This document shows positions 15,514-51,486 of a DNA stretch of 64,000 nucleotides, one piece after another. The notes below the pieces were generated by a model. That model did not search any database and was not told the origin of the DNA. It saw nothing but the letters and a program-made list of their open reading frames with translations. A program made the translations under genes and the position numbers. The stretch lies in NCBI GenBank assembly GCA_003452935.1, contig DMMY01000005.1, positions 57,858 to 121,857 of the forward strand, read 5' to 3'. This DNA comes from Elusimicrobiota bacterium (GTDB lineage Bacteria; Elusimicrobiota; Elusimicrobia; UBA1565; UBA9628). Within the stretch, counting starts at the first letter, position 1; every line of letters begins with the position of its first letter.

Positions 15514-16976
15514 TAAGCCCCCTTGGCCATGAGCATGGCCGGGACGGTCTTTAGGATTATTTCCAGGTCCAGGCCCAGGGACCAATGCTCGATGTAGAAC
15601 ATGTCCAGAGCGAAGCGCTGCTCGCTGGACACGTCCGAGCGTCCCGAGACCTGCCAGAGCCCGGTGATGCCGGGCAGGATGTTCATGCGCTTCTTTGCGG
15701 TTTCCCCGAATTCCCTGAGCAATTCCTCCATTTCTCCCGTGGTCACGGCCAAGGGCCGCGGGCCGACCACGCTCATCTCGCCCCTGAAAACGTTGATGAA
15801 CTGCGGAAACTCATCGAGGGAGAAGCGCCGCAGCCAGCGGCCGACCCGGGTGACGCGCGGGTCGTCCTTGGCCTTGAAGAACGCGCCTTGGTGGTTGTTG
15901 AGGGTTTTGACCGCTTTTATCCGGGATTCGGCGTCTACCACCATGGTCCTGAATTTGTAGGCATGGAATATCCGGCCCTTATAGCCGAACCTCTTTTGCT
16001 TGTAGAGGGCGGGTCCCTTGGAGTCCAGACGGATGAGCAGCGCGGCGAGCAGCCAGGGCAGGCCGGCGGCCAGGAAGACGAGAAGACAGAACGAAATATC
16101 AAAGGCCCGCTTGGCCATGAAATTGACCCTGGTCATGGAGCCGTGCTGGATGCGGTAGGCGGGCAGGCCCAGGCTGTGATCCATCTGGATCTCTCCCAGG
16201 CGCAGCTCCAGAAGATCCGGCAGCATCTTGAACGATATGCCCTGGGAATCGCAGATCTCGGCCGCGGCCAGGATGCGCTCATGCGCGAGCGCGGATTTAA
16301 AAAGGATCATCTCGTAGAAGGGTTGCCCGGCCAGCAGGCGCTTGAGGTCTTGGTCCGGGGGCAGATCGCGCAGCTCATGGATAACCGCCTCGGGGTGGCG
16401 CAGCCGGATCCGGTCCTTGACCACCTGGGCCACGGCGCCGCCGCCGATAAGCAGGACCGGGCGCGCGTTCTCATGCCGGGAGACCCAATCATCCACCCAC
16501 AAGACCACGGCCTGGCTCAAGGAGACCAGGATCACGGATATGGGCAGGACCAAGATCAGCATCATGCGGGAATACTCGAGCCGGGAATAAATATAAGTCG
16601 TCGCCATGGTGGCGACGGTGGCCAGAAGGCAGCCTTTGACGATCTTGAGGAAGCGGTCCGCGCCGCTTATCCAGGGGTTGCTGTAAAGCCGGGAGGAATA
16701 CCAGAAAATCATCAGCCACAAAGGCACCGCGACATAGAGCATGTTGCGGTACAGGTCCCAGTCCGGGGTGAGGCCAGGGATGGGAAAAGCCGAGACCCAT
16801 CTTTCCGAGCGGAAGCGCCACAGGTAGGCTAAGGCGTAAGAGGAACTCACGGCCGAGGCGTCGAAGGCGAGGTGCAGGAACGTGCGCAGGCCGTGGCGCA
16901 GCCAAAGAGGGAAAGCCGGCTTAAATGGTTTGTGGCTCGACTGGATGCGCTCGGTACCCGGCGCGAGAGTGGCCAT
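15510..16976 (-). CDS. Polyprenyl-phosphate sugar phosphotransferase (WbaP/bacterial sugar transferase family), the pathway-initiating enzyme
   Basis: N-terminal multi-TM region plus the C-terminal catalytic domain KRAFDISFCLLVFLAAGLPWLL...SLDEFPQFINVFRGEMSVVGPRP...PGITGLWQVSGRSD, which is diagnostic of the PF02397 family. Confidence 0.9.
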   Translation of the reverse strand: MATLAPGTERIQSSHKPFKPAFPLWLRHGLRTFLHLAFDASAVSSSYALAYLWRFRSERWVSAFPIPGLTPDWDLYRNMLYVAVPLWLMIFWYSSRLYSNPWISGADRFLKIVKGCLLATVATMATTYIYSRLEYSRMMLILVLPISVILVSLSQAVVLWVDDWVSRHENARPVLLIGGGAVAQVVKDRIRLRHPEAVIHELRDLPPDQDLKRLLAGQPFYEMILFKSALAHERILAAAEICDSQGISFKMLPDLLELRLGEIQMDHSLGLPAYRIQHGSMTRVNFMAKRAFDISFCLLVFLAAGLPWLLAALLIRLDSKGPALYKQKRFGYKGRIFHAYKFRTMVVDAESRIKAVKTLNNHQGAFFKAKDDPRVTRVGRWLRRFSLDEFPQFINVFRGEMSVVGPRPLAVTTGEMEELLREFGETAKKRMNILPGITGLWQVSGRSDVSSEQRFALDMFYIEHWSLGLDLEIILKTVPAMLMAKGAY

Positions 16977-16990
16977 CAGCAGCGATTATA

Positions 16991-19366
16991 TCAATTTTGC
17001 GCATACAGCTTTTCCAGGGCGCCGAGGGCCTGGGCCGGGGTGAATTCCAGGAGGATACGTTCCCGGCCCGCTTGCCCGAGCTTTCGGCGCAGGGAGGCGT
17101 CGTGGGCCAGGCGCAGGGCGGCCCGCAAAAGAGAAGCTTCATCGCGAGCCAGCAGCCCCGTGACATCCGGGATGACGGCGTCCTGGTTGCCCGGCGCGTC
17201 CGAGGCCACGACCGGCAGTCCCAGGGCCATGGCCTCCAGGACCGCGTTGGGCAAACCCTCCCAGCGGGAGTAATGGACCAGGATGTCGAGCTCGCGCATC
17301 TTCTCCAAGGCCTGTTCTGGCTTGAGCCAGCCGGTGATTTCCAGATTTCCTTGGAGGCCGCGCTCATGCGCGAGGCGCCGGATGTCTTCTTCCTGCTCGC
17401 CGCCGCCGATCCAGATAAAGCGCGCATCCGGCCGCGCCCGGCGCAGCCCGGCCGCCAGCCTGACGAAAGCCTCGGGATTTCGGGCCGCGGTCAGGCGGCC
17501 GCACGCGCCGAGCGCGAGGCCCTCATGGGGCAGCGGAGGCGGCGGCTCGGCGGGGCCGAGGTAGGGATCGCAGACCGTGTGTACGGGGTTTCCCCAGTTC
17601 AGGGAGCGGGCGAGTCTCGCCTCGCTCGGCGAGACCGCGACGATCTCTCCTATCCAGGACACGGACCATTCCGCGGCGCGGTAGAGCAGGCGGGAGGCCG
17701 GGCTCCGGTCCGTCTGGAGAAATGAATAGCCGTGGGGAGAGTAGAACACCCGCGGCGCCCCTGTAAGCCAAGCGGCCAGCCGGGCCAGGACTCCGGCCTT
17801 GGATGAGTGCGCGTGGACCGCGTCCGGGGCTTCCCGGCGCATGATGGAGCATAGCCGGACGAATGCTTTTAGGTCTCGCCCAAGGGAAATCTCCCGGACC
17901 ATGTCGGGCACGTGATAAGCGGTCTTGGCGCCGGGAACTTGGCCGCGGTATTGCTCCGGGTCTTCGCCGGGCCGGACCGCGTAGACCAGGACCGCGTCGA
18001 AGCGCCGGGGGTCGAGGCCGTTGCAGATGGCGGCCACCTGGTTGCCCGTGCCTCCGGGACCGCCGCACTCCAAGACTTCCAAGACCTTGGTTCGGCCTCC
18101 TTTTAAATTCGGACGCCGCGGCCCCAGGCTGGCGGCGAAAGGAAATAGGAGCGGGAGGTAGAGGATTTTATGCCGCGTGGCGCTGCCCAGGTCGAATTCC
18201 AGCAGCGCCGAACCCGCGGCCATGACCGCGAAAAGGCTCAAGAGAAGCCATCGCGCTATTGTTTTTGGCCCGCGCCAAGCCCCGAGCAAGCCGGCCAAGG
18301 CGAGGATCAGGAGCACGGAGTTCTCCAGGGCCGCCAACACGCGTCCGAGGTTTCCGTCCATGGCATAGAGGCCGGGCAGGGGCATGAAGAGGACGTAGAA
18401 AACCCCTTTGGGCAGAAACGCGAGAACATCCCACCAATTGTTGAATTCCAAATCAACGAAGAGCTGCGTGCCGATCTCGCGGCCGGCGTTGTCCTTGGCC
18501 CATATCCGGTCCGAAAGCTGGCGGACGCGCCGCGTTTCCGAGAGATTGCGCGGGCTGTAGGGCGCGACATACCGGTCGAGACTGGGACTGTAGGTGGGGG
18601 GCATGATGGCATGGATCACGGCCGGGTCCGGCACATCCGAGGGGGGCGGCTTGAGGCAATCAGTGAAGATCACGCGGCTTAGGTGCAGGTAAAGCACGGG
18701 GGCGCCTGCCACGAGCGCGGCCGTTGCCAGAACCTTTCCCCAGGGCAGGCCCCGGCGCAAGCGTCTGGCTGTTTCAGCGCATAAGCCGGCGGCCAGGACG
18801 CAGGCCGTGGTCGCGGCCAAATAGCTGCGCAGAAACCCGACTCCCACCAGGGCTCCTACAGCGGCCAGACCATCAGCCGGCCGGATGGGATTGTCGCGAA
18901 AAATCCTCAGGACGAAGGCCAGCGCCGCATAGGCCAGGAGCAGTATCCAGGAGTCCTTGAAGTTCTGGGACGTAAAGAAGATGTGCGAAGGCCATAAGGA
19001 GAGGCATAGGGCGCTTATGGCGGCGGGCCCCGCTCCAAATAAAGGAGCGCTGAATTTAAAGAAAACGACGATGACCAGGGCGCCGAAAAAGGAGTTGAGG
19101 ATCTTGGTCAGGAGCGGGTGGAAGCCGAAGGCTCTGTAGCAGCAGGCCAGCAGGAAGGCATGAGTGCGCTGTGACGGGTGGCGCGCCGAGAGATATTCCT
19201 CGCCCCGTTGCCAGGAGGAAACCATGTCCCGGGCCGTTTCCTCCATGAGCCGGGCATCGGTGTAGTAGTGGGCGGGGAAAACAGGCTTGACCTCGCTGAC
19301 CAATGCAAAGCCGACGCGCAGGCTCAGGGCCAGCAGGAACAGGAGGCGCGCCGGGGACTTGGTCAT
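16991..19366 (-). CDS. Fusion protein: N-terminal ~420-aa polytopic membrane domain (paralog of 28064..29404) plus a C-terminal GT4 glycosyltransferase
   Basis: The N-terminal half is hydrophobic multi-TM, ends in the motif FDLGSATRH and aligns with the standalone protein at 28064..29404 (VDLGSATRH). The C-terminal half has GT4 hallmarks: KVLEVLECGGPGGTGNQ, HAHSSKAG and EGLPNAVLEAMALGLPVVASD. Confidence 0.7.
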   Translation of the reverse strand: MTKSPARLLFLLALSLRVGFALVSEVKPVFPAHYYTDARLMEETARDMVSSWQRGEEYLSARHPSQRTHAFLLACCYRAFGFHPLLTKILNSFFGALVIVVFFKFSAPLFGAGPAAISALCLSLWPSHIFFTSQNFKDSWILLLAYAALAFVLRIFRDNPIRPADGLAAVGALVGVGFLRSYLAATTACVLAAGLCAETARRLRRGLPWGKVLATAALVAGAPVLYLHLSRVIFTDCLKPPPSDVPDPAVIHAIMPPTYSPSLDRYVAPYSPRNLSETRRVRQLSDRIWAKDNAGREIGTQLFVDLEFNNWWDVLAFLPKGVFYVLFMPLPGLYAMDGNLGRVLAALENSVLLILALAGLLGAWRGPKTIARWLLLSLFAVMAAGSALLEFDLGSATRHKILYLPLLFPFAASLGPRRPNLKGGRTKVLEVLECGGPGGTGNQVAAICNGLDPRRFDAVLVYAVRPGEDPEQYRGQVPGAKTAYHVPDMVREISLGRDLKAFVRLCSIMRREAPDAVHAHSSKAGVLARLAAWLTGAPRVFYSPHGYSFLQTDRSPASRLLYRAAEWSVSWIGEIVAVSPSEARLARSLNWGNPVHTVCDPYLGPAEPPPPLPHEGLALGACGRLTAARNPEAFVRLAAGLRRARPDARFIWIGGGEQEEDIRRLAHERGLQGNLEITGWLKPEQALEKMRELDILVHYSRWEGLPNAVLEAMALGLPVVASDAPGNQDAVIPDVTGLLARDEASLLRAALRLAHDASLRRKLGQAGRERILLEFTPAQALGALEKLYAQN

Positions 19367-20556
19367 GTCTGCGCCTCTGCCTTGACCCAGATGATGATAA
19401 GGAAGGTGGCGACCAGTTCATTCTGGAAGGATATTTCCGTCAGGTTCATGACCAGGAACGCGGCCATGGTCCCCAAAGCCCATAGATTCCAAGCGTTGGG
19501 CAGAGCCCTGACCCTTTGCCAGGCCCTTGCCAGCATGGCCGCGAACAAAGCCAGAAGCGCGGCCAGACCCAGCAGGCCTCTTTCCGCCAACTGGTGCAGA
19601 TACAGACTATGGGCCGAGCCCCACACGCGTTGGGTGGCGATCTCTCCGGAAAAATAGCGCGGAAACACCGTGCGGTAATTTCCCGGCCCCACGCCCAAGA
19701 CCGGGTGGTCGCGAAACGCGCGCCACGCCACGTCCCAGAGCGCAAGCCGGTCGAGTTGGGGGTTGGAGCCGGGTTTGGCTACGGTGGCGCCGAAATCGCG
19801 CAGGGAGCCCAGCAAGGATCTGTGTGTGGGCAGAAGCTCCAAGGCGACTGCGCCCAGCATGGCGGCCAAGAGGGCCCATTTGATCCAGCGGCGCAGTTCG
19901 CGGTCCGCGGCGCAGAGCGTCAGAAACCCGATGAACAAGGCCAGGAAAGCGGCCCGGGTTTGGTTGAGGATGAAGGCCAAAGTCCCGATCCCCAAAAAAA
20001 CGAGCAATTCCCTTTGCCGAGGCTGATTCTGGCCGGGACGCAGGAGAAAGCAGAGCGCCCCCAACAAGGCCAGGGCCAGCATGTCGCCGTAGGTCACCGG
20101 GTGCATGAACCCGGAGGCGCGGATCCAGAACCAGCCGTTGGCCGCGCTTTTCACCACGGACTGCGCGGCGCCGTAGCCCGCGACGGCGGTAAAGCCCAGG
20201 ACCAGGGCCGCGGCCGCCGGGGCTTCGGGCGCGCAGACGCAGGCGAGCAAAAGAGCGTAGAAGACGCCGATCTTGTGCAGTTCCTTGGGCAGGATGCGCA
20301 GGCTTTCCGCGGGCGCGACCCCGAGCGCGCCGGTCAAGGCGCACACGGCGACGTATATCCAAAGGCAGAGGGCGGCGGCTCCCCATGTCCTGCGCCAGGG
20401 CAGGCGGCCCGCGCTTAGGGCATGCCACATCAGCCCCGCGCACACCAGCCCCAGGGCTATATTGGTCCCGGCGATGGAAAAGGGCAGGGCCAGGCAGAGC
20501 GCCGTTACGGAGGCGGCCATGAGGCCCTTAGGGGACAACGGGATCTTATGCATCCC
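19363..20556 (-). CDS. O-antigen ligase/polymerase-like (Wzy_C-type) polytopic membrane protein
   Basis: ~10-12 predicted TM segments with a central loop region (LNQTRAAFLALFIGFL...) typical of Wzy/WaaL family proteins. The track ORF starts at 20634; an internal MHKIPL start at about 20556 is preferred because it only marginally overlaps the upstream gene. Confidence 0.65.
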   Translation of the reverse strand, partial: GMHKIPLSPKGLMAASVTALCLALPFSIAGTNIALGLVCAGLMWHALSAGRLPWRRTWGAAALCLWIYVAVCALTGALGVAPAESLRILPKELHKIGVFYALLLACVCAPEAPAAAALVLGFTAVAGYGAAQSVVKSAANGWFWIRASGFMHPVTYGDMLALALLGALCFLLRPGQNQPRQRELLVFLGIGTLAFILNQTRAAFLALFIGFLTLCAADRELRRWIKWALLAAMLGAVALELLPTHRSLLGSLRDFGATVAKPGSNPQLDRLALWDVAWRAFRDHPVLGVGPGNYRTVFPRYFSGEIATQRVWGSAHSLYLHQLAERGLLGLAALLALFAAMLARAWQRVRALPNAWNLWALGTMAAFLVMNLTEISFQNELVATFLIIIWVKAEAQT

Positions 20557-22630
20557 CGTCCCTGATTTCAGAGGATACGGTGGTTTCTCCGATCTTGCGG
20601 GAGTTCCGGCCGATCCCGATGCTGTAAATCTCAAGCCTGACCCGGCAAGGGCCTATGGGCAAAGTCCCTTTTGTGCGCAGGACATAGGATTCGCGCATCG
20701 CCCGGCCCGCGCGCCATGACGACGGCGGCTTTTGATCGTTGAAAAGAGGCCAGAGCACCGGGGTTTTTCGGCCCAACGTCGGCGAGGGATAGACCGGCTC
20801 GTAAAGGACGCGGCTGCGGTTGTCGTACACGGTGAGCAGCACGACGAAATCATCGGTTTGGCTGCGGCGCGCGATCCAGCCGAGGTCCAGGCGCAGGAGC
20901 TCCGGCTTGGCCTGCAGGGCAACCTCGGCGAGCTCCAAGCCCGGCATTCCGGGCACCGCGGAGCCTGACCGCGCGGAAGCGGGTTTTTCCTCGACTTTGT
21001 CCAGGGCCGCGGCCATGTCCAGCCGGACCAGGCTCTGACAGCCGGGCACTGGCCGCGTCTCGCGTTCAAAAGCCCGGCCTTGTGGGTCCCGCATGCGCAC
21101 TTCACGGATGCAGCGGAACTCCGTTCCGGAGATATAGGCGACGGCGTTGATGCGGGAATACGGCAGCCAGCGAAACGTGGAGCGGTTCCATATGGAAAGA
21201 TCGTTCAAATAGAACGCCCCTTCCCGCGTCGGCGTGAGCTGGTAATCGCCGTCTACGAGGTTCTTCCGGCCCGCGGCGCGGATAGCGGCCATGGGGGCGT
21301 CATGGTAGAGGTGGAAGGCCGGGGCTTTCTTGACGTAACGGGGCGCGCCTATGACGAAAATGTTTTCGAAATCCGGGAAGAATCGGGCGGCCTCCTTGAG
21401 ATATGCCTGGTGCAAGCGGTGCGTGTAGGCCCATTCGCTGCCTTCGTGAACATTGGCGACCACGGCGTTGGCGAAGAGAAGAACCGACAAGACCGTCAGC
21501 GTCCGGCCCGCGAGCGGACGGCTCTTTATCAGCCAGACGGCCGTCCCCACGCACAGGAAGGCCCAGCCCAGGGAAGGGAGATAATTGTGGCGGGGGTTCA
21601 TGTACCAGAAATAATTGGGCAGGTAGGCGAGAAAGAACCAGGCGCAGCCGAAAAACATAAGGCGCAGCGGAGCCGGGGAAACGCGCCAGGCATCCCATGA
21701 GGGCCGATCAGCCTCGGCCCAGCGGCGCACGAGGCGCGCGATCAGCCAGCCTGTGAGCAAGGCGGCCGCGGTCAGGGCCGCGGTCCAGCCCCAATGCGAA
21801 AGCCGTCCCGGGCTGGGCAGGGAAAACATCCCTTTGATTGGTTCAAGAATGCTCTGGGGCAGGCGTAATAGGATATTTTTCCACTGGATCACCGGCCTGC
21901 CGCCGAATGATTTTTCCGAGAAATGCCGCATGAGGACATGGGTCAGGTTGAGGCTCAAGACCAATGCCGCGGCCATCAGGAAAACACGAGGCCGGCGCTC
22001 CTGCGGAGAGCTTCGAAACCACAGCAGCATGAGAAGCAGCGGCCAAAGGAAAAACACTTGATCGTAGGTGAACAGTGCCGCGATATAAAGCCCGAGGCAT
22101 GCGAACAGCCTCCGCGGAAGGCTGGTCTTGCGCCGGGCGGCGAGCCAGAAAGCCAGGAGGCAAAGCAGCGTGGGGATCTCGCATTGAACGAATTGCGTGA
22201 ACCAGAAATGAGTTTCCCCGTGGTTGGGCAGGAGGGCGAAGATCAGGGCGATGGGCAGGGCCACGCAAGGCAAGGCCGTGAGCTCCCAGGCCAGAAGATA
22301 TGCCAGAATGGCGCTTAAAGCGTCGCCAAGGAGGATAATGCGGTGGAGCCAAAGCGCGGATTGGTTGGTGATTCCCGCCAAGATCCAGAAAAAAAATATT
22401 TGGAGGTTTCGCCCGGGAACATAATGAAGGAAATAGTCCCATACCTCGGCCGCGGGCTGGCGAACCGTCATCAAGAAGGAATGATCGTCCATGTAGAAAC
22501 CGGACCATAGGCCAGGGGCGAACGTGGCCAGGACTATGGCCACGACGATGAGCAGGGGCAGCCAGGATTTTTTATAGAGAGAATCAGACACTTGCAGGCG
22601 CCGGGAGGGATCGTGTCGTCCCTGAGGCAT
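20546..22630 (-). CDS. GT-C-fold-like polytopic membrane protein with a C-terminal soluble domain (ArnT/PMT-like glycosyltransferase candidate)
   Basis: 694 aa. The N-terminal ~400 aa has many TM helices and an early FYMDDHSFLM motif in the first loop (acidic DD resembles the GT-C catalytic loop). The C-terminal ~290 aa is soluble. It is a paralog of the divergently transcribed 22679..24265 (FYQDDWFTME). Confidence 0.5.
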   Translation of the reverse strand: MPQGRHDPSRRLQVSDSLYKKSWLPLLIVVAIVLATFAPGLWSGFYMDDHSFLMTVRQPAAEVWDYFLHYVPGRNLQIFFFWILAGITNQSALWLHRIILLGDALSAILAYLLAWELTALPCVALPIALIFALLPNHGETHFWFTQFVQCEIPTLLCLLAFWLAARRKTSLPRRLFACLGLYIAALFTYDQVFFLWPLLLMLLWFRSSPQERRPRVFLMAAALVLSLNLTHVLMRHFSEKSFGGRPVIQWKNILLRLPQSILEPIKGMFSLPSPGRLSHWGWTAALTAAALLTGWLIARLVRRWAEADRPSWDAWRVSPAPLRLMFFGCAWFFLAYLPNYFWYMNPRHNYLPSLGWAFLCVGTAVWLIKSRPLAGRTLTVLSVLLFANAVVANVHEGSEWAYTHRLHQAYLKEAARFFPDFENIFVIGAPRYVKKAPAFHLYHDAPMAAIRAAGRKNLVDGDYQLTPTREGAFYLNDLSIWNRSTFRWLPYSRINAVAYISGTEFRCIREVRMRDPQGRAFERETRPVPGCQSLVRLDMAAALDKVEEKPASARSGSAVPGMPGLELAEVALQAKPELLRLDLGWIARRSQTDDFVVLLTVYDNRSRVLYEPVYPSPTLGRKTPVLWPLFNDQKPPSSWRAGRAMRESYVLRTKGTLPIGPCRVRLEIYSIGIGRNSRKIGETTVSSEIRDGDA

Positions 22631-22678
22631 CCGGAATTATAACAAAAGCAGCCGAGCGTATTTTTTCCGTTTGGTATA

Positions 22679-24265
22679 ATGGTCGTCTCGAAATCCTTTA
22701 TGCTTATTGACTCGCGGCCTTGCCGGGCATGGCTCTTGGCCGCGGCCTTGATCGCGGCCGTGCTCGGGGCTTGGCTTGCCTTTCCTCCGACGGGTTTTTA
22801 CCAGGACGATTGGTTCACCATGGAGGACTCCGCGCGCGGCCGCACTCTGCTCGACGCCGTGCATGCCTTCGCCGCCCGCGGCTGGAACTGGCGGCGGCCC
22901 GCGCAGATCGTGCTCATGCCTCTGGCTCATAGAGCGGCTCTTAATCGGCCGGCCGTAGCCGCCGGCATCCTCGCGTTTCTCGTGGCCCTCGAGGCGTTGC
23001 TCCTTTATGGACTGGTGCGTCGCATGACCGGAAGAGCCGCAACGGCGTTGGCGGTTACGGGGTTCGTGCTTCTTTATCCGGGTAGGCCGTCTTTTCAGAT
23101 GTGGTTCGCCGACATACTGCAGACCACGGCTCAGCCTCTCGTGCTCGGGGGGCTCTGGCTTTATAGGGATTGGGTCGAGTCACGCCGGCCCGCCAGGCTG
23201 TTCCTGGCCCTGGGCCTTTATCTTGCCGGAGCATCATGTTATGAGGCCGCTTTTTTTCTGCCCCTGATACTTTTGGCTGATCCGGCCATTCTTCCAGGCG
23301 CTGGGCCCTGGCGGATGCGGCTGCGCCGCGTGGCCGCCCGGACCTGGCCTCTGGCCTTGGCCATGGCAGCGGCCGTTCTCTGGAATCAGGTGATTCTCGC
23401 GTGGATTACTTCAACGGCGCTGAGGCCCCCGAGTTGGTCCCTGGGTCTGGCGTTGAAAGGCTTGGGGGCCGGTTTTGAATGCGTCAGTTCGCGCGTCCTG
23501 CATGAGTGCCTGCGGTCCGTGGGCCCGGCCTTGCGGGGATTCTCGGCCGGGCATTGGCTCTTGGCCGCGGCCTTGGCGATTTTTTTCGCCTGGGCGCTGG
23601 AGTCCGCTTTGCGCCGCGAAGCCGAGGCTCTTCCCACGACCTGGTGGGTCGGCACGGCCGCCGCCTTCTTAGGGGCTTACCTGCCCTACGCTTTCTCAGG
23701 AGGCTACCAGCCGACCATGCACGGCATCATGAGCCGGACCAACGGCGCGGGCGCCTGGGTTTTCGGCATGCTGGCCGCGGGCATCCTGGCTTCCTGGCCC
23801 GCGTCATGGTCCCGGTTTCGGCCTTGGTGCTTGGGTCTGGCGGCCATGCTGCTTCTGCCGGCCAATTGGACGCAGCGGCAGGATTGGGCGAGAGCCTGGA
23901 GGGAACAGCAAAGGATACTCGACGATATCCGGATTCAAGCCAAGGATATTCCCGGCCCGGCCACGATCGTCCTTTCCTCATCGCTCTATGTCGGCGATGT
24001 GGTCGTGTTTGACGCTCCCTATGATTTCGATTCAGCCCTGCATTTGGCCATCAACCGCAAGGATTTGACCGGAGCCATCGATTCGTGGCGGTTTCGATTT
24101 CGCCCGGATCGAGCCTTGGAGGCGCCAGGGGGACAGTTCGTCAGAGAATATAGTTACGATCGGATGTTCCTTTATGATCCTCAAACGCGCGAGCTGCTCA
24201 GGGTCTCTGGGCCGCCGGATGCCCGTTGGGCCAAAGAACATCCGGCGCGCCTGATCCAGCTCTGA
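22679..24265 (+). CDS. GT-C-fold-like polytopic membrane protein (paralog of 20546..22630)
   Basis: 528 aa, multi-TM, with an early loop motif FYQDDWFTMED. The likely start is the internal M at about 22700, because an extended -10-like TGGTATAAT overlaps the 22679 ATG. First gene of a 4-gene plus-strand operon. Confidence 0.5.
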   Translation: MVVSKSFMLIDSRPCRAWLLAAALIAAVLGAWLAFPPTGFYQDDWFTMEDSARGRTLLDAVHAFAARGWNWRRPAQIVLMPLAHRAALNRPAVAAGILAFLVALEALLLYGLVRRMTGRAATALAVTGFVLLYPGRPSFQMWFADILQTTAQPLVLGGLWLYRDWVESRRPARLFLALGLYLAGASCYEAAFFLPLILLADPAILPGAGPWRMRLRRVAARTWPLALAMAAAVLWNQVILAWITSTALRPPSWSLGLALKGLGAGFECVSSRVLHECLRSVGPALRGFSAGHWLLAAALAIFFAWALESALRREAEALPTTWWVGTAAAFLGAYLPYAFSGGYQPTMHGIMSRTNGAGAWVFGMLAAGILASWPASWSRFRPWCLGLAAMLLLPANWTQRQDWARAWREQQRILDDIRIQAKDIPGPATIVLSSSLYVGDVVVFDAPYDFDSALHLAINRKDLTGAIDSWRFRFRPDRALEAPGGQFVREYSYDRMFLYDPQTRELLRVSGPPDARWAKEHPARLIQL

Positions 24266-24315
24266 TTTTTCCAGGTGCGGCCGTCAAGTCTCCAGAGTTG
24301 GTATGATATCGCAGG

Positions 24316-26502
24316 TTGGAAGGAACTAAGACGGCAGTAAATCCCCCTGATATGGGCCGGCGGATATGGGACCGCCAGCCGCTTTTGGCGGCGTGCGTTG
24401 TTTTGGGCTTGTTTCTGTTGTGGCAGGGATTTTCCCTTCATTCTTTCCTAAGAACGGAAACGAGGCCTCCGGCCTGGGACCAGGCCAATCATCTGGACGT
24501 CGCTTGGGAGTATAGGGACGCCCTGCTCCAGGGAGACTGGGGGCGCGTCTGGAACTTCGTCCCAAAGAGCGATATCCCGCCTTTCCCGCCGCTCTATCAC
24601 CTCGCCCTGGCCTCGGCGCTGAGTTCTGGGAACCAGACTTGGATTGTGCTCTGGGTCAATTGGGTCTATCTGGTCCTGTTGAGCTTTTCCCTGCTGGGCA
24701 TTGCCTGGGAAATGCGTCGGGAAGTCTCGGCCGCGGCCGCGCCGCTCATCTTGGCCGGGACTCCCATCGTGCTATGGCTTTTTTATAACCAGCTTCCGGA
24801 TCTGGCGTTGACCGCCTGCGCCGCCCTGGCCTACTGGATGCTGCTGCGCTGCGCGGGTTTTTCGCGCTGGCCCTGGGCTTTGGGATTCGGCGGAGCATTC
24901 GCCTTCGGCATGCTTCATAAATGGAGTTTTTTCAGCTATCTGTGGCCCGCCTATTGGCTGGCTTTTCAGGCCTGGCGGAGGCGTGAAAACCGGGCCCAGG
25001 TCTTGGCGGCTGCTGCCTTGGCGCTGGCCTTGGCCTTGCCGTGGTATGCTGTCCGTTTCCCCCTGGTTCTGACTCGTCTGGTCGCGGCTTCCTCTGATTT
25101 TGCCGTGCCGTTTTGGCGGCAGGGGGCTTTCTTCCAGTATTTCCGGGACATGATTCCAAACCTGGGGATATTCTTCTTCGCCCTGGCTTGGGCGGGAGCC
25201 TTTCGTCCCAAGGTCTTGCGGGAGTCCGCTCAGGCGCGAGTGCTGCTGGCCTGGGTCCTGTCTTCGTATCTGTTTTGGGCCATTGTCCCGAACCGACAGA
25301 TGCGCTACCTCCTGCCCGGGCTGCCCGGCTTGGCGGTTTTATGTTGGCTGGCCTGGCCCAAGAGGATCATATGGGGCTTGGCGGCTTTGCAGGTGTTGAC
25401 CGCGGCCAATTTCACGCGAGGTTGGATCAAGCCCGTGTCATTGCCTGCGCCGCTGGGCTTGGTTCAATTTTTTCCGCAAGGAATGCCGCGCCGGGAAGAC
25501 TGGCGCATCGAGGAGATACTGCGCGAAGCGTCCGGCAGGTCCCGCACGGATTTGGTCCTTGCGGCCAACCATCCGTTCTTCAATGAACTTAATTTTATTT
25601 GGACCGCGCGCCGGCTGGGCCTGGATTCGGTCCGATTGTCAGGCCCCGGCGCGTCCTTGTGGGAACTTTCCGATTTGGTCCTGCTCAAGGAAGGGGACCT
25701 TGGCCCGGCCGCAGTGACGGCCGGACTGCCTGAAATATCGGCCGAGATGAACCGGCCGGGCGGCTGGTTCGAGGCCGCGTACGGCGAAGCCAAGCGTTGG
25801 CCCCTGCCTGACGGGTCCGCGGCCGTGCTCTTCGAGAAGAAAAAATATTTGCAGAGACCTTTCCCGGCCAGGGCGTTGAATATGGACCGCCTCGATGCGG
25901 GGGCTCTGGCCATGTCCGGACTGCGCGTTATGTTTGGCGATTGGGACCCAAAGGCTTCGGTCTTTCGCCGCGTCTCCCTTTCCGCCAAGGAAGCGCTCTG
26001 GCGGGGTCTGCGGGTCCGTGACCTTAGACTGGACTTGGAAGATGCCCTGCCCTGGCCTGAAAGCCGGGATCTGGAGCGCGGCCGCTGGCGCTTGCTCAAG
26101 CTGGGACGGGTACGGATTGCCGCGGCCTCTGTTTCAGCCGGGGATTTGGAGCTCTTGCTGTTGAATCGCGGAGTGCGCGCGCGGCGGCTGGAACTCGAGG
26201 GAGGATTGCGCCTGGACGCTTCCTATCGCGGGTTGCCGGTTTCCATAAAGGCCGGGCTTGAGCAGGCTGATTCCGGAGAGTTCCTCCGCCTTGGCGTGAG
26301 CGAGTTCCGGTTGGGAGGCGTTTCCTTGCCGGCTGAGAGGATGGTCCGGTTTTTCCTGGGCGCGCCCCTGCTGGCGGCGCGCCGGCTTGGCCGCTCTACG
26401 GCGATCGAGACCGCGCTGCATCCCGGCGAGCCGAAGATCCTTCCCTTTGCCGTGGATTTGGCCGGATTTTCTTTTCATTCCGGGAGGATGACGGTCCCAT
26501 GA
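24316..26502 (+). CDS. ArnT/PMT-like (GT39/GT83-type) GT-C membrane glycosyltransferase with a C-terminal periplasmic domain
   Basis: 728 aa. The N-terminal ~400 aa resemble ArnT-type polyprenyl-phosphate-sugar-dependent transferases: early periplasmic loop PPAWDQANHLDVAWEY, 10+ TM helices and KWSFFSYLWPAYWLAF. A ~300-aa soluble C-terminal domain follows. Confidence 0.65.
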   Translation: MEGTKTAVNPPDMGRRIWDRQPLLAACVVLGLFLLWQGFSLHSFLRTETRPPAWDQANHLDVAWEYRDALLQGDWGRVWNFVPKSDIPPFPPLYHLALASALSSGNQTWIVLWVNWVYLVLLSFSLLGIAWEMRREVSAAAAPLILAGTPIVLWLFYNQLPDLALTACAALAYWMLLRCAGFSRWPWALGFGGAFAFGMLHKWSFFSYLWPAYWLAFQAWRRRENRAQVLAAAALALALALPWYAVRFPLVLTRLVAASSDFAVPFWRQGAFFQYFRDMIPNLGIFFFALAWAGAFRPKVLRESAQARVLLAWVLSSYLFWAIVPNRQMRYLLPGLPGLAVLCWLAWPKRIIWGLAALQVLTAANFTRGWIKPVSLPAPLGLVQFFPQGMPRREDWRIEEILREASGRSRTDLVLAANHPFFNELNFIWTARRLGLDSVRLSGPGASLWELSDLVLLKEGDLGPAAVTAGLPEISAEMNRPGGWFEAAYGEAKRWPLPDGSAAVLFEKKKYLQRPFPARALNMDRLDAGALAMSGLRVMFGDWDPKASVFRRVSLSAKEALWRGLRVRDLRLDLEDALPWPESRDLERGRWRLLKLGRVRIAAASVSAGDLELLLLNRGVRARRLELEGGLRLDASYRGLPVSIKAGLEQADSGEFLRLGVSEFRLGGVSLPAERMVRFFLGAPLLAARRLGRSTAIETALHPGEPKILPFAVDLAGFSFHSGRMTVP

Positions 26503-28067
26503 GCGGCGAACCTCTTTCCGCGTCCAACCTTGGCGCGTGGCGTTGCGCGGCCATGGCTTTGTGCGCGGCCGTGCTGGCGGCCAATGTTTGGCATTTGCTG
26601 GTCCAGACCGCGCCTCCGGCATGGGACGACGCCTGGTATCTTGAGGTAAGCTTCCGTCTTTATCAGGCTCTCAAAGCCGGCTTGATGAATTTTCTGCAAT
26701 CTTATGCGCATGCCTTCCGCATCAAGGCTCCTCTGATCGCGGTGCTGCCTCTGCCGCTCTACGCGGTTTTCGGGACCGGGGAGCGCATTGCCCTGTGGGT
26801 CAACATGCTGGCCCTGCCCCTGACGTGGTTGTTCGCCTTCCGGATCGGCCGGCTGTTTTACGGGGAGAGAGCAGGACTGGCCGCGGCCATGGCTTGCGCC
26901 TTGCTGCCCTTAAGCTACGGCCTTTCGCGGTTTTTTTATGTCGAGTGCGTTTTGACGGCGTTCGTGACTTGGTCGGTATGGGAAATCCTGCGGGTTCGCG
27001 CCGATGACCGCTGGGCCGGCGCCAGGCTGGGAGCGCTTCTGGGCTTGGGGCTTCTGGCCAAGTCCTCATTTTTGCTCTATGTCATAGGCCCTATCTGGCT
27101 GCGCCGCGAAGCATTGCGTCCTCACGCCAAGACCGCCTTGGTTTGCGGGGGGCTCCTGGCCTCCACTTGGTATGCCTGGAATCTTCCCTTTGTCGCGGGA
27201 TTCGGACTGAGCGCGGGTTTTGGGAGCATCTCCCATAGCTACGGCAGTCATGCTCTATCTTACGCGGCCTTGCGCGGCTTCGCCGTCCAAGTTGTTTTTC
27301 AAGCATTGTCCTGGCCATACGCTCTCGTGGCGGTCGTCTTGCTCGCGGCCGCCTGGCAGAGCCGGCCGCGCCCTTGGAACTGGGGTGATCGCGAATGGTT
27401 CTTGCTTTTCTGGCTGGGGCTTCCGTTTCTGTGCGTGGCCTTGGCGGTCAATAAACAAGTGCGCTATCTTGCGCCCATCCTTCCAGCCCTGGCCGTGGCC
27501 GTAGGCGCGGCCGCGGCCGCAGTGGCTTCGGGAACGCTGCGCACCGCCATGGCGGCCCTGCTGACGCTGGCTCCGGCAGCGGTTTTTTGCGGCCAGACTT
27601 TCGGAATTCCAGAATCCAGGCCGATGTTTTTCAATGGGCCGCCTTCGCGCGATCCGGGCTGGGACCGGCGAGCCGTGGTGGAAACTTTAGTAGCAAAGGC
27701 TCCTGAGGGAGCGGTCGTGGCCATAGGTTTTGAGCATGCGCTTTTCAACGCGAACAATTTGGCTTCCTTGTCCTTTGCTTTGGGGCATCGTTATGAATTC
27801 GTCAACCTGGTCCAAGGGAACAATACGGTTGAGGACGCGCTGATCCGGCTCAAGGATAAATCAGCGGCCTACCTTATCATGGTCCAGGGGGAGCTTCCCG
27901 CAGAGGTCGGGACGCCCCATGATTTCCTCAACCGGGCCAATGCCGGGATTCAAGCCCGCCTCGGTGACGGAAGGCTGAAGGCGACGCGCTTGGACGCGAT
28001 CCCGGTCAGCCACAAGGTTTCGGCGGTTCTTTATAAGCTCGGCGTTGGCCGCGGGGACGAGGAATGA
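26499..28067 (+). CDS. ArnT/PMT-like (GT39/GT83-type) GT-C membrane glycosyltransferase
   Basis: 522 aa. PPAWDDAWYLEVSFRLYQ occupies the same first-loop position as the preceding paralog. It has 11-13 TM helices, and its start overlaps the upstream stop (ATGA coupling). Confidence 0.65.
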   Translation: MSGEPLSASNLGAWRCAAMALCAAVLAANVWHLLVQTAPPAWDDAWYLEVSFRLYQALKAGLMNFLQSYAHAFRIKAPLIAVLPLPLYAVFGTGERIALWVNMLALPLTWLFAFRIGRLFYGERAGLAAAMACALLPLSYGLSRFFYVECVLTAFVTWSVWEILRVRADDRWAGARLGALLGLGLLAKSSFLLYVIGPIWLRREALRPHAKTALVCGGLLASTWYAWNLPFVAGFGLSAGFGSISHSYGSHALSYAALRGFAVQVVFQALSWPYALVAVVLLAAAWQSRPRPWNWGDREWFLLFWLGLPFLCVALAVNKQVRYLAPILPALAVAVGAAAAAVASGTLRTAMAALLTLAPAAVFCGQTFGIPESRPMFFNGPPSRDPGWDRRAVVETLVAKAPEGAVVAIGFEHALFNANNLASLSFALGHRYEFVNLVQGNNTVEDALIRLKDKSAAYLIMVQGELPAEVGTPHDFLNRANAGIQARLGDGRLKATRLDAIPVSHKVSAVLYKLGVGRGDEE

Positions 28068-29404
28068 ACTGTTCCAGGGCAAGGGTTTTGTCCGGGAAAT
28101 TCGGTGCATCAGCGCTTTGGGTTTTGTTGCTTTCGGCAATCGGGGTTCGGTGGATTTCGGCCGTGGTCATGGATCGGCATCCGATTTTCCCGGAATATTA
28201 CTATGCGGATGCCCATCTTTATGATGCTCAAGCTCGCGTTCACGCTGCGACCATGAGGGGGGGAGTCTTTCAGCCGTCGAATCTGACCCCGGGTCGGGAA
28301 CTCTATACCCGCTGGGTGGCTTGTCTTTACTATCTTGCGGGGCCGTGTCCTCTTTTGCCGATGCTTATCAATGGTGTCTTGGCGGGAGCGGCCATCCTGC
28401 TTTGGCACCGGATCGTCTTGTCCGCCAGCAGGGATAACGGACCGCCTGGACGGCGCGTTGCTTTTTGGGCGGTTTTATTCCTCGCTTTTTGGCCGACGCA
28501 TGTTTTTTATACGTCCCAGAATCTTAAGGAAGCCATGATGCTTTCGGCCTTGGCTGCCGCGTTTTTGTCCATTGCCGGCCGCCGGGATTCCAACGAGAAG
28601 AGTTGGATCGTGTTTTCGCGGATTGCCGCGGGAGGAGCGGCTCTTTTCTTTTGCGGCCTGCTGCGGGCTCATATCCTGCCTTTGGCAGCCGCGGCCTTGC
28701 TGGGGGGGGAGGTCTGGAGATTCCTTACGGTCCGCCGTCCGGAAGCGCGCAGAGTCGGGGCGCTGGTCTTTCTGGGTGTGATCGGGGTTGTTGTCTTGTT
28801 TCAAGTTGTCTCGCCTTTGATTTTCAACCGGCTTAAGTCCTATGGGCCGGATGCGTCGGTGCCTTTTGTCAGAGATTTGACGCAGTCCTCGGGCAATGTG
28901 AGGCCGTATAGCCAATGGAGCGCGGCGTGGTTGACGGATTTTCGCAAGATCCGGCAGCAGCGCGACCAGCAATGGGCCTTGCGCAAGGAAGCGCGGCAAA
29001 TTCAAACCCAGATTTTTCCCGACGCGGAATTCCGGGATTGGCAGGATATCTGTTTCTTTCTTCCTAAGGCCGCGTTCTACGTCCTTTTCATGCCTCTGCC
29101 CGGCCTCTACGACATGAGCGAAAATCTCGGCCGCTGGTTGGCCTCGTTGGAGAACTTGGCTCTGCTGACAATGTTCATCGCGGCGTTGTCCGGCCTGCGC
29201 CGGCGCTGGAATTGGGCCATGGCCGGGCCCTGCGCCTTGTTTTTCGCGTTAATGTGGCTGGCGAGTGCCTTGACCGAGGTTGACCTTGGCAGCGCTACCC
29301 GGCATCGTTTGATCTACTTTCCTTTTCTTTTGCCCTTTACCGCTGTACAGGCTTCAGCCTTCTGGGATTGGCTGCGCGAGCATATAAGGGAGAGGGTGGG
29401 CTAA
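28064..29404 (+). CDS. Polytopic membrane protein, paralog of the N-terminal domain of 16991..19366 (GT-C-like candidate)
   Basis: 446 aa, multi-TM. Shares with 16991..19366 the N-terminal motif HPIFPEYYYADAHLYD (vs KPVFPAHYYTDARLME) and the C-terminal motif VDLGSATRHRLIYFPFLLPF (vs FDLGSATRHKILYLPLLFPF). Start overlaps the upstream stop. Confidence 0.5.
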   Translation: MNCSRARVLSGKFGASALWVLLLSAIGVRWISAVVMDRHPIFPEYYYADAHLYDAQARVHAATMRGGVFQPSNLTPGRELYTRWVACLYYLAGPCPLLPMLINGVLAGAAILLWHRIVLSASRDNGPPGRRVAFWAVLFLAFWPTHVFYTSQNLKEAMMLSALAAAFLSIAGRRDSNEKSWIVFSRIAAGGAALFFCGLLRAHILPLAAAALLGGEVWRFLTVRRPEARRVGALVFLGVIGVVVLFQVVSPLIFNRLKSYGPDASVPFVRDLTQSSGNVRPYSQWSAAWLTDFRKIRQQRDQQWALRKEARQIQTQIFPDAEFRDWQDICFFLPKAAFYVLFMPLPGLYDMSENLGRWLASLENLALLTMFIAALSGLRRRWNWAMAGPCALFFALMWLASALTEVDLGSATRHRLIYFPFLLPFTAVQASAFWDWLREHIRERVG

Positions 29405-30396
29405 AGTCCGCGGCCGCGCAGGTCGTGGATCTGCACCAGGCCCACGGCCCGGCCGCGGCCGTCCACCACGGGCAGGACGTTGAAAGGCCTGCGCCGCAGC
29501 TCCATGATCTCGATGGCGCGCGAGGCCAGGGCTTCGGGCCGGATCGTGGTGGGGCGCGGGTTCATGATCCGCGGGATGGAAAGCTCCTGGAGGTTGCGGC
29601 CCTGCTCCAGCGGCTTGCGGATGTCGCAGTCCGTGACCAGGCCCTTGAGCCGGCCCTGCCGGTCCACCACGCACACGGCGCCCGCGTGCTGCCGGGTGAT
29701 CTCCACGAGCATGTGGGAGACCGCGTCGTCCTCGCGCACCAGCGGCAGGCGCTTGCCCGCGCGCATGACGTCGGCCACGGTCAGGGTCAGGCGCCGGCCC
29801 AGCTGTCCGGCCGGGTGGTTGCGCGCGAACTCGTCGCTTTTAAAATTCCTGAGCCTCATAAGGGCCACGGCCAGGGCGTCGCCCACGGCCAAAGCCGCGG
29901 TGGTGCTGCAAGTCGGGGTGAGGTTGAGCGGGCAGGCTTCCTGGGTGGCGGGCGTGACCAGGACCACGCAGGCGTGCCGGGCCAAGGTCGAGTGCGGGTC
30001 GGACGTGACGGCGATTACCTTGGCGCCGATGGCGCGCAGCCGGGGCAGTAGTTCATTGAGCTCGGCCGATTCGCCGGACTTGCCGATGGCCACGACCAGG
30101 TCCTGGCGCTGGACCACGCCGAGGCCGCCGTGCATGGCTTCGGCCGGGTCAAGGTGCAGGGCGGGAGTCCCGGTCGAGGCCAATGTGGCGGCTATTTTCT
30201 GGGCGATGAGCCCGGACTTGCCCACGCCGGTCATGATGACCTTGCCGCGGCAGCGGGCCATGAGGCGCGCCGCGGCCGCGTAGTCGCCGTTGACCGAGTC
30301 CCGCAGCCGGGCAAGGGTCCTGGCCTCGAGGCCGATGACCCGCCGCATCTCGGCGGCGATGTCCAAGGGCGCGGCGCGGCGTTTCTTGGCTTTCAT
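29401..30396 (-). CDS. kpsF: KpsF/GutQ-family arabinose-5-phosphate isomerase (SIS domain + tandem CBS domains)
   Basis: SIS motif VIMTGVGKSGLIAQKIAATL, the acidic sugar-isomerase core, and two C-terminal CBS repeats. 331 aa, the right size for KdsD/KpsF. Confidence 0.85.
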   Translation of the reverse strand: MKAKKRRAAPLDIAAEMRRVIGLEARTLARLRDSVNGDYAAAARLMARCRGKVIMTGVGKSGLIAQKIAATLASTGTPALHLDPAEAMHGGLGVVQRQDLVVAIGKSGESAELNELLPRLRAIGAKVIAVTSDPHSTLARHACVVLVTPATQEACPLNLTPTCSTTAALAVGDALAVALMRLRNFKSDEFARNHPAGQLGRRLTLTVADVMRAGKRLPLVREDDAVSHMLVEITRQHAGAVCVVDRQGRLKGLVTDCDIRKPLEQGRNLQELSIPRIMNPRPTTIRPEALASRAIEIMELRRRPFNVLPVVDGRGRAVGLVQIHDLRGRGL

Positions 30397-30953
30397 GAGA
30401 GGCGGAAATCTATGTCCTCGAAGTCCACGAGGCTCAGGTAGCGGCGGCCGTTGGCGGTCTTGGGCGGGGCTTCCAAGGTCGCGCAGAGCGCCAGATCCAC
30501 GCCTGGCGGGATCTCTTGGAACCGCGGCACGAAGGTGAAGGCGGCGTTAGGCAGGGGCAGGTCGGAGACGGTATCCCGCAGAAGCTCCAGTATCTCATCC
30601 TGGGCTACCAGCACGAACTCGCGCCTTCCCTGCCGGTACTCCTGGGTCAGGGCCGTGGTGATGTTCTCCTGGATCTGGCGGAAAATGCGCACGGTGTAGC
30701 GGGTATAAAAGTAGGCTTTGCGGGTCTTCTCCACCGCGCCTTTCAAGGTCAGCAAATACTGGGTTCGCTTCCAATCAAGCTGGGTGATCTTGATAAGGCC
30801 CTTGCGCGCCAGCCTGCGGATGAGCAGGTTGGTCATGCCCAGGGAGAGCCCTAGGCTTTCGGAGAGGTCGCGCTGCGTGCGGGTGGGCTTGCGGGATATC
30901 TCCTGGATGAGGAGGAATTCGTTTTCCTCTAAAGTCTCGGTGGAAGTAGGCAT
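30393..30953 (-). CDS. Winged helix-turn-helix transcriptional regulator (MarR/PadR-like N-terminus)
   Basis: LIQEISRKPTRTQRDLSESLGLSLGMTNLLIRRLARKGLI matches an HTH-plus-wing. The track ORF starts at a TTG at 30989, but that lies upstream of the predicted TSS, so the ATG at 30953 (MPTSTETLEENEF) is preferred. Co-directional and overlapping with kpsF. Confidence 0.55.
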   Translation of the reverse strand: MPTSTETLEENEFLLIQEISRKPTRTQRDLSESLGLSLGMTNLLIRRLARKGLIKITQLDWKRTQYLLTLKGAVEKTRKAYFYTRYTVRIFRQIQENITTALTQEYRQGRREFVLVAQDEILELLRDTVSDLPLPNAAFTFVPRFQEIPPGVDLALCATLEAPPKTANGRRYLSLVDFEDIDFRLS

Positions 30954-30979
30954 GGTCGGACTTTGTTCGAAGATTGAAC

Positions 30980-31008
30980 ATTGTACCAATTGGCCGTCGT
31001 CAGGTCAA
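30980..31008 (-). promoter_or_regulatory. Promoter/operator B: -35 TTGACC, 17 nt, -10 TACAAT, with an overlapping TGTTCgAAgaTTgAACA imperfect inverted repeat (30964-30980) just downstream
   Basis: The minus strand reads ctTTGACCtgacgacggccaattggTACAATgttcaatcttcgaacaaagtccgaccATG. It has the same architecture and about 30 nt of near-identity with the element upstream of pseB (57568..57596). Confidence 0.5.
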
Positions 31009-37663: not shown

Positions 37664-38074
37664 GCGCCAAGGCAAAGAGGGCTAGAGCAAAGGTTGCGGA
37701 TATCTCGCATAAGACAAAGAAATTATACCAATTTGAGGCTATGACTCTTTGGCTAAAGGGAGGCGCGCCGGGCCTCCAGTCAAAGCTGAACTCCTGAAAT
37801 TCGATTATGAGCCGTTCGGGGCACTCCCAACGGAAAATATAATTTCCTTGACAACTACATATATCTATTCAGGCCGGGAGATCAACAGTTCGATGCGTGC
37901 CGAGTCCCTTTATCCCGCCCGCAACCCAGGCAGACCCGGATGCGCCAAAATCCAAAACCATGCTTCCCATATCCGGAATATCTTTGAGTCAATTCGAGAG
38001 CTTATGGCTCCCACTGAAAATTCAGAACGCGTGATCGGATTTTGAACTCCCGCCCTGTCGCCGCAGGCGCTTAT

Positions 38075-48404: not shown

Positions 48405-48444
48405 GGCATTGCCGGCGGCGCAGGGTTGACTACGATAATCGTCA

Positions 48445-48453
48445 TTATAGCAA
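48445..48453 (-). promoter_or_regulatory. Candidate internal extended -10 promoter (TGcTATAAT on the minus strand) upstream of the SPASM rSAM gene
   Basis: In the 63-bp gap 48405-48467 the minus strand reads ggttTTGcTATAATgacgattatcgtag, a perfect TGnTATAAT. A small inverted repeat ATAATcgtcATTAT overlaps it. Confidence 0.3.
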
Positions 48454-51484: not shown

Positions 51485-51486
51485 GC

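Follow-up and report, generated by a model that had tools for sequence, protein, structure and literature searches.

Why would a single bacterial locus hold six genes for polytopic membrane glycosyltransferases, and what would their products glycosylate? The question is raised by a 64,000-nt stretch of DNA from an uncultured Elusimicrobiota bacterium (assembly GCA_003452935.1, contig DMMY01000005.1, positions 57,858 to 121,857). The whole of this 64-kb stretch is the window, and coordinates in it are counted from its first nucleotide. A first-pass annotation had described an array of six paralogous glycosyltransferases (GTs) of the GT-C fold between 16991 and 29404. We found the array to be a conserved Elusimicrobiota surface-glycan locus in expanded and rearranged form and not a separate kind of system. 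With moderate confidence, we propose that its GT-C enzymes decorate the locus's own glycan on the periplasmic face, using polyprenyl-phosphate sugar donors. This gives a functional, testable frame to seven genes called "hypothetical protein" in public databases, namely, the six GT-C genes and a Wzy_C gene that lies among them.

The six GT-C enzymes of the array

The array contains the following genes and one intergenic region.

16991-19366, minus strand: A, a bifunctional protein of 791 aa, with an F-type GT-C membrane domain (residues ~1-415) and a PglA-like family 4 glycosyltransferase (GT4) domain of the GT-B fold (residues ~420-791)
19363-20553/20634, minus strand: W, a membrane protein with a Wzy_C domain, of the O-antigen ligase/polymerase family, with ATG 20553 as its likely start
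20546-22630, minus strand: B, a GT-C enzyme of 694 aa, with ~12 transmembrane (TM) helices and an all-beta domain at the C-terminus (residues ~420-694)
22631-22678, no strand: the divergent intergenic region between B and C, 48 nt, with two back-to-back extended -10 motifs
22679-24265, plus strand: C, a GT-C enzyme and paralog of B, 528 aa (521 aa if the start is ATG 22700)
24316-26502, plus strand: D, an ArnT-like GT-C enzyme of 728 aa (716 aa if the start is ATG 24352), with a long C-terminal extension
26499-28067, plus strand: E, an ArnT-like GT-C enzyme of 522 aa
28064-29404, plus strand: F, a free-standing F-type GT-C membrane protein of 446 aa and a paralog of the membrane half of A

A check of the open reading frames (ORFs) found A to F at the positions given by the first-pass annotation. 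W, a seventh membrane gene that sits between A and B, was absent from it. W matches Pfam Wzy_C (7e-20, 71.8 bits; cutoff, 31.7), and public collections hold a 396-aa form of it. Public gene callers use the shorter starts listed above for C and D. They also give B as 681 aa and F as 347 to 426 aa. The long start of F at 28064 has GAGGA upstream, and the region that it adds aligns with the conserved N-terminus in the F-family alignment. From this alignment, we read the added segment as the probable first TM helix (TM1). Identical copies of protein E are present on the NCBI contig DOMI01000002.1 of a metagenome-assembled genome (GCA_003509925.1) and on JGI and Logan contigs.

We assign all six proteins to the GT-C fold with high confidence, from PMT_2 matches, links between family profiles, a match to ArnT and a conserved Asp in the first loop. 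A, D, and E score 31.9, 37.8, and 44.9 bits against Pfam PMT_2 (PF13231; ArnT/PMT-like, GT83/GT39), above its gathering threshold of 26.1 bits. Neither Pfam-A (at an E value of ≤0.01) nor NCBIfam has a model that matches B, C, or F. Some members of the B, C, and F families do match PMT_2, although the window proteins do not. In the F family, 7 of 33 members match. In the C family (n = 52), three members have weak matches to PMT_2 and three to Glucos_trans_II (GtrII). Two of the GT-C families, B/C and A/F, are without a Pfam-A or NCBIfam model.

A combined profile of the D and E families, searched against the PDB, reached ArnT (5ezm; E value, 2e-4; 342 positions). The acidic motif of the first loop and the Lys that follows it line up in this alignment, and PPxWDDAWYLE of E lies on GPDEGRYAE of ArnT. 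PDB sequence searches with E or D singly gave nothing useful. The B-family profile had chance matches only, and the F-family profile had no match. None of the profile searches assigned the proteins to transporters or to other families that are not glycosyltransferases.

The AlphaFold2 model of B (pLDDT, 92.1) has about twelve membrane helices followed by the all-beta domain. Structural similarity to solved GT-C enzymes was found. Read off the models, the ~12 hydrophobic helices span residues 23 to 417 in B and 5 to 412 in A. C to F have the same polytopic layout as B, A, or E, judged by alignment. Each protein begins with a polytopic membrane domain, of roughly 8 to 14 TM helices. All families contain one or more acidic residues, invariant or at least 90% conserved, directly after TM1, where the GT-C fold would put the first extracytoplasmic loop. 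The N-terminal Lys and Arg residues and the fold suggest that this loop faces the periplasm.

The first-pass annotation had also proposed large periplasmic C-terminal domains. This may hold for B, whose model contains the beta-rich domain, and for D, whose long extension has no Pfam match. It probably does not hold for A. The C-terminal half of A is a GT4 domain and is probably cytoplasmic, because GT4 enzymes use nucleotide sugars. A is a fusion of GT-C and GT4 and is presumed to span both faces of the membrane. Such a fusion could reveal how glycan assembly on the cytoplasmic side is coordinated with its periplasmic steps.

The six proteins form three pairs, as had been noted from their motifs. 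By pairwise BLASTP, the N-terminal half of A is 36% identical to F over 423 aa (E value, 5e-52). B and C are 35% identical over 102 aa (46 bits), and D and E are 27% identical over 310 aa (39 bits). The two weaker pairs were made firm by profile-profile comparison, for which family alignments were assembled from database homologs and compared with hhalign. The B family matches the C family with 99.9% probability (E value, 1.6e-37; 457 columns), and the D family matches the E family with 99.6% probability over 464 columns. Short common segments link the F family to the B family (95%, 78 columns) and the C family to the F family (82%). Because of these matches, we regard the set as three subfamilies of one superfamily.

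The motifs quoted in the first-pass annotation are real, and conservation within each family is highest at their positions. GFY(M/Q)DD is common to the B and C families, PPAWD(D/Q)A to D and E, and YYY(A/T)DA and (V/F)DLGSATRH to F and A. In the B family, D48 and D49 are present in at least 90% of 41 sequences. The C family, with 248 representative homologs at an E value of ≤1e-3, has D43 invariant in 52 sequences, and its first-loop pair is D43/D44. D49, D407, R413, and H414 are invariant in the F family (n = 33), and the equivalent of D49 in A is D37. The E family has D43 in 22 of 22 sequences and D44 in 20 of 22. The D family has D55 in 5 of 5.

The surface-glycan locus and its counterparts in Elusimicrobiota

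The whole window consists of glycan biosynthesis genes. The array is flanked by the following genes.

13230-14354, minus strand: a second GT4, colinear with the priming transferase in related loci
14386-15585, minus strand: a DegT-family sugar aminotransferase, colinear with the priming transferase in related loci
15510-16976, minus strand: a priming polyprenyl glycosylphosphotransferase (PGT) of the WbaP/WcaJ type (Bac_transf, 3.6e-63, 212.8 bits; TIGR03025, 349 bits; cutoff, 295.6)
29401-30396, minus strand: a KdsD/KpsF-type arabinose-5-phosphate isomerase, adjoining F
30393-30989, minus strand: a MarR regulator
31000-33429, minus strand: a GT-like domain fused to a Wzx flippase (Polysacc_synt, 59.2 bits), 1.6 kb from the array

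The PGT directly abuts A. It shares one locus with the Wzx flippase and the Wzy_C-family protein W, as in a Wzx/Wzy-type system. The array had been described as not a standard Wzy-type O-antigen locus. This is not borne out, since the array lies within a Wzx/Wzy_C/PGT locus that is colinear across Elusimicrobiota. W is a candidate polymerase, ligase, or O-oligosaccharyltransferase by its domain match. The GT-C fold is also ascribed to Wzy polymerases and O-antigen ligases, which use lipid-diphosphate sugars (PMC10920833), and on that count the block contains seven related membrane transferases. The N-terminal domain of the Wzx fusion is ~400 aa long and has weak similarity to GT4/TuaH. The fusion is kept in most related Elusimicrobiota loci.

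We scanned one genome per species with the motifs of the F family and retrieved 43 loci. The F-family alignment was used as the seed, as a mixed alignment of A and F was too divergent. Six-frame ORFs of the 43 loci were searched with hidden Markov models (HMMs) of the window proteins. Forty-one loci were labeled Elusimicrobia or Elusimicrobiota, and two were titled "bacterium." One belongs to Candidatus Endomicrobium trichonymphae. The colinear order is [MarR, KdsD], the GT-like~Wzx fusion, E, Wzy_C, a small family 2 glycosyltransferase (GT2), the F-type GT-C, GT4, a variable slot, PGT, DegT, GT4, and a giant protein. A surface-glycan locus is thereby described across the phylum Elusimicrobiota, a poorly studied diderm lineage.

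The E-type gene is present in 21 of the 43 loci, between Wzx and Wzy_C. The Wzy_C protein is conserved next to the F-type gene and is present in nearly every related locus. Ten loci have a fusion of the F-type domain to GT4, and in 19 a separately encoded GT4 comes after it. Where a genome has a fused A-type protein, a free F-type paralog is retained elsewhere. An 845-aa protein on a Logan contig (P0152) contains an F-type membrane domain fused to a Wzy_C domain. This fusion may further point to cooperation between the Wzy_C protein and the F-type enzyme.

The slot between GT4 and PGT varies by genome and contains B, C and B, C, D, or two D genes. This slot probably gives rise to surface antigen diversity in Elusimicrobiota. 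Fourteen loci have one GT-C gene, 15 have two, nine have three, three have four, one has five, and one has none. The six GT-C genes of the window are the maximum among the related loci. At third codon positions, the GC content of C, D, E, and F is 0.66 to 0.73, and that of B is 0.75. It is 0.79 to 0.92 in the flanking core genes, other membrane proteins included. The low values of B to F fit accessory or more recently acquired genes, and together with the variable slot they suggest that B, C, and D are accessory. The neighborhood of one B homolog (P0005, locus L005) contains no glycan genes.

One genome contains a stand-alone four-gene GT-C island (locus L013; JACRDQ010000018.1, 4543-11272). 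C, B, and E lie on one strand of the island, and F is divergent. The main locus of this genome lies on a different contig (L032) and has a fused A-type gene. In a Pfam scan, the ORFs flanking the island had housekeeping matches or none, and no sugar-activation genes and no obvious donor genes were identified among them. An island of this type appears to have been merged into the main locus in the window.

Donors, acceptor, and rival explanations

The window contains a candidate donor operon with three genes.

883-1584, minus strand: a soluble GT2 of 233 aa that resembles polyprenyl-phosphate sugar synthases
1590-2534, minus strand: an epimerase/dehydratase of the short-chain dehydrogenase/reductase (SDR) family
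2531-3850, minus strand: a UDP-glucose dehydrogenase (Ugd)

The best NCBIfam matches of the window GT2 are AglJ (79.7 bits) and ArnC (77.3 bits), followed by PpgS (48.2 bits) and Dol-P-hexose transferase (44.2 bits). In 26 of the 43 loci, a soluble GT2 of ~225 aa ends -7 to +20 nt from the start of the F-type gene (L006, L014, L017, L018, L020-L028, L030, L032-L035, L037, L038, L040, L041, L043, L045, L047, and L048). This GT2 has no TM segment of its own. Five of these F-adjacent proteins were scanned, and AglJ was the best match in all five. The next matches were Dol-P-hexose transferase, ArnC, PgfS, and PpgS, and all were below the equivalog cutoffs. Enzymes of these types put a sugar onto polyprenyl phosphate. 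The window GT2 is a displaced homolog of the F-adjacent GT2, now beside Ugd and the SDR. Polyprenyl-phosphate sugars made by the AglJ/ArnC-like GT2 are candidate donors for the GT-C enzymes. The GT2, the GT-C, and in some loci the GT4 make up a conserved module that is open to expression and assay.

We propose a pathway of five steps. It draws on the fold, homology, motif conservation, and gene neighborhood of the enzymes, and its donor type, acceptor, order of steps, and topology are predictions. First, the WbaP-type PGT would prime undecaprenyl phosphate on the cytoplasmic face. Second, the oligosaccharide on undecaprenyl diphosphate (Und-PP) would be extended by the PglA-like GT4 of A, the second GT4, and the GT-like domain on Wzx, with an amino sugar from the DegT aminotransferase. 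Third, Wzx would flip the Und-PP-oligosaccharide to the periplasmic face. Fourth, the Wzy_C protein would polymerize or ligate the glycan. Fifth, the GT-C enzymes would add single sugars to the glycan in the periplasm from the polyprenyl-phosphate sugars made by the AglJ/ArnC-like GT2, and the conserved DD/DE motif of the first external loop would provide the catalytic carboxylates. The acceptor would be the locus's own glycan, Und-PP linked or mature. E and the F-type enzymes may be near-core, and B, C, and D may be interchangeable accessories that diversify the glycan.

Several observations weigh against this proposal. All six GT-C proteins are annotated as "hypothetical protein," and their topology is predicted from models and charge distribution. 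The window GT2 scores far below every NCBIfam equivalog cutoff and is 13 kb from the array, and the window yielded a single GT2 of this kind to set against six GT-C enzymes. A search of the genes and gaps of the window revealed no donor flippase (GtrA, ArnE/F, SMR-like, or a dedicated small transporter). The MOP/MATE-like protein at 49973-52165 belongs to the neighboring cluster. Pfam scans of the main ORFs of the window found no Wzz or Wza/Poly_export family, which the genome could hold elsewhere. The beta domain of B matches only generic Ig-like sandwiches and is silent on whether the acceptor is a glycan or a protein.

Among the closest known systems are those in which a GT2 of the polyprenyl-P-sugar-synthase type is coupled to a GT-C enzyme. 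This coupling is the hallmark of extracytoplasmic glycosylation systems such as Gtr, Arn, and GT136, and the Elusimicrobiota loci pair a GT-C gene with a GT2 that resembles such synthases. In the Citrobacter GT136 system, extracytoplasmic glycosylation after polymerization is the work of a GT-C enzyme together with a polyprenyl-P-sugar synthase and a flippase (Kelly et al. 2024, PMC11127046). The founding GT136 GT-C enzyme contains a C-terminal carbohydrate-binding module (CBM) (PMC11127046), and B contains a C-terminal beta domain. As with GT136 and with GtrA/B/C, which glucosylate O-antigen, the genes lie within an O-antigen-type locus, and some members of the C family have weak GtrII matches. 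Unlike these systems, the array has no flippase partner in the window and has six GT-C genes instead of one. It also includes families without a Pfam or NCBIfam model and a GT-C fused to a GT4, and it is known from sequence. Compared with Wzx/Wzy-dependent O-antigen or Pgl-like loci, it has unusually many GT-C genes, and Wzz and Wza were not seen in the window scans. Its locus also differs from these in the fusion of Wzx to a GT-like domain and in ending with an SprA-like giant outer membrane protein. The tandem GT-C clusters of mycobacteria (embC-embA-embB and aftA/aftB) have no homology to the array that was detectable by HMM and belong to a different phylum and envelope. The array proteins are smaller and lack the Emb-type CBM architecture. 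A search of the literature on GT-C arrays in Elusimicrobia found nothing relevant.

The enzymes may instead decorate lipid A or the core of lipopolysaccharide (LPS), as ArnT and RgtA-D do, using undecaprenyl phosphate-linked 4-amino-4-deoxyarabinose, undecaprenyl phosphate-linked galacturonic acid (GalA), or a similar donor derived from UDP-glucuronate. We consider this unlikely. ArnT (GT83) is the only solved homolog that was found by sequence for D and E, both of which pass PMT_2, and the window contains the Ugd, SDR, and ArnC-like GT2 operon. The SDR weakly resembles the ArnA C-terminus and UDP-xylose synthase. The DegT protein is similar to ArnB (232 bits), and the KdsD/KpsF gene of the 3-deoxy-D-manno-octulosonic acid (Kdo) pathway abuts F. 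There is also a precedent for several paralogs, as four GT-C enzymes of Rhizobium, RgtA-D, add GalA to the core and lipid A. However, the ArnT match has an E value of only 2e-4, and B, C, and the F-type proteins are not ArnT-like by sequence. The DegT protein scores slightly better against PseC, and the ArnA, ArnB, and ArnC matches are all far below the equivalog cutoffs. The neighbors are Wzx, Wzy_C, and PGT genes and not lpx or waa genes.

It is clearly improbable that some or all of the six are PMT-like protein O-glycosyltransferases with secreted or outer membrane proteins as targets, such as the SprA-like protein or cargo like that of a type IX secretion system (T9SS). The PMT_2 family does include protein mannosyltransferases, the giant SprA-like outer membrane protein ends the conserved locus, and a surface protein in the window has a T9SS type A sorting domain. 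On the other side, neither the Pfam scan nor the structure matches of the B beta domain revealed a MIR domain or another protein-acceptor module, and the tight coupling to genes for Und-PP-glycan assembly favors a glycan acceptor.

Last, it is highly improbable that the F-type domain of A and F, possibly with others, is an Und-PP-oligosaccharide polymerase or ligase or mainly a membrane scaffold to which the soluble GT2 and the GT4 dock: its fusions to GT4 and, in P0152, to Wzy_C, its translational coupling to a GT2 without a TM segment, and the GT-C-type fold of Wzy polymerases and O-antigen ligases (PMC10920833) would fit such a role, but the invariant first-loop Asp and invariant Arg, His, and Lys fit a catalytic GT-C enzyme, family members match PMT_2 of the lipid-P-monosaccharide class, and nearly every locus already has a separate Wzy_C protein.

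Transcription units, the SprA-like protein, and the neighboring cluster

The first-pass annotation had placed the genes from 22679 to 29404 in one tightly coupled four-gene operon. The ATGA overlaps at 26499-26502 (D/E) and 28064-28067 (E/F) are present, but only D, E, and F are tightly coupled. C and D are separated by 50 to 86 nt, and this gap contains an extended -10 motif. The operon is more likely C plus a separate D-E-F unit for this reason, and D-E-F alone is translationally coupled. The motif, TGNTATRAT, occurs six times in the window against 0.6 expected. All copies are intergenic and upstream of genes, namely, the PGT, B, C, D, and two genes of the neighboring cluster.

16985-16993, minus strand: extended -10 motif upstream of the PGT
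22636-22644, minus strand: extended -10 motif TGTTATAAT in the B/C divergent region, on the B side
22672-22680, plus strand: extended -10 motif TGGTATAAT in the B/C divergent region, on the C side
24299-24307, plus strand: extended -10 motif TGGTATGAT upstream of D
37722-37730, minus strand: extended -10 motif in the neighboring cluster
48444-48452, minus strand: extended -10 motif in the neighboring cluster

These data suggest four units: B-Wzy_C-A, PGT-DegT-GT4-giant protein, C, and D-E-F. Some copies of the motif are only 6 to 9 nt from the annotated start codon. At this spacing, the mRNAs would have very short leaders or none. A generic scan for sigma-70 promoters and terminators between 16.8 and 31.2 kb gave counts at background level.

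Two further proteins of the window resemble components of the T9SS.

7479-13064, minus strand: an SprA/Sov-like outer membrane protein of 1861 aa that closes the conserved locus
60084-63890, plus strand: an NHL/fn3/TIG surface protein of 1268 aa, whose C-terminus passes the T9SS type A sorting model TIGR04183 (25.6 bits; cutoff, 23)

The 1861-aa protein matches TIGR04189 (SprA/Sov, the T9SS translocon) with an E value of 2.5e-55; its 187.5 bits fall a little short of the cutoff of 200. Searches of Pfam and of PDB sequences gave no match for it. Its hydrophobic N-terminal leader resembles a signal peptide, and the protein ends in TLTFQF, with a C-terminal Phe of the kind typical of outer membrane beta-barrel proteins. 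At least 10 related Elusimicrobiota loci end in an SprA-like protein. The 1268-aa protein lies in a lower-GC part of the window (GC content, 0.50 to 0.58), and its match to Pfam Por_Secre_tail is below the cutoff. No PorK, PorL, PorM, PorN, PorU, or PorV was seen within the window.

The T9SS papers that we retrieved describe the system as confined to Bacteroidota or the FCB group, and we found no publication that links it to Elusimicrobia. With an SprA-like protein closing the locus, one may ask whether T9SS-like export occurs outside Bacteroidota. In Porphyromonas, anionic LPS (A-LPS) is made by a Wzx/Wzy-type pathway. Type A cargo is attached to this anionic LPS (PMC9143113). By analogy, the Elusimicrobiota locus might be a counterpart of A-LPS and T9SS together, although we judge this distinctly unlikely. 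It would make an anchor glycan, the SprA-like translocon would export proteins with type A C-terminal domains that are then attached to the glycan, and the GT-C set, six enzymes here, would diversify the anchor or surface glycan. If true, this would be a T9SS-like, glycan-coupled secretion system outside the FCB group.

A second glycan cluster was found at 36053-57535 on the minus strand. It encodes three B12-binding radical SAM enzymes and one radical SAM/SPASM enzyme. It also contains genes for NeuB, a HAD hydrolase, transferases of the LIC12162 and LIC13510 families, and an MOP/MATE-type flippase, the second in the window, as well as two CMP-sugar synthetase-like genes. By its gene content, the cluster looks like a pathway for a modified nonulosonic acid.

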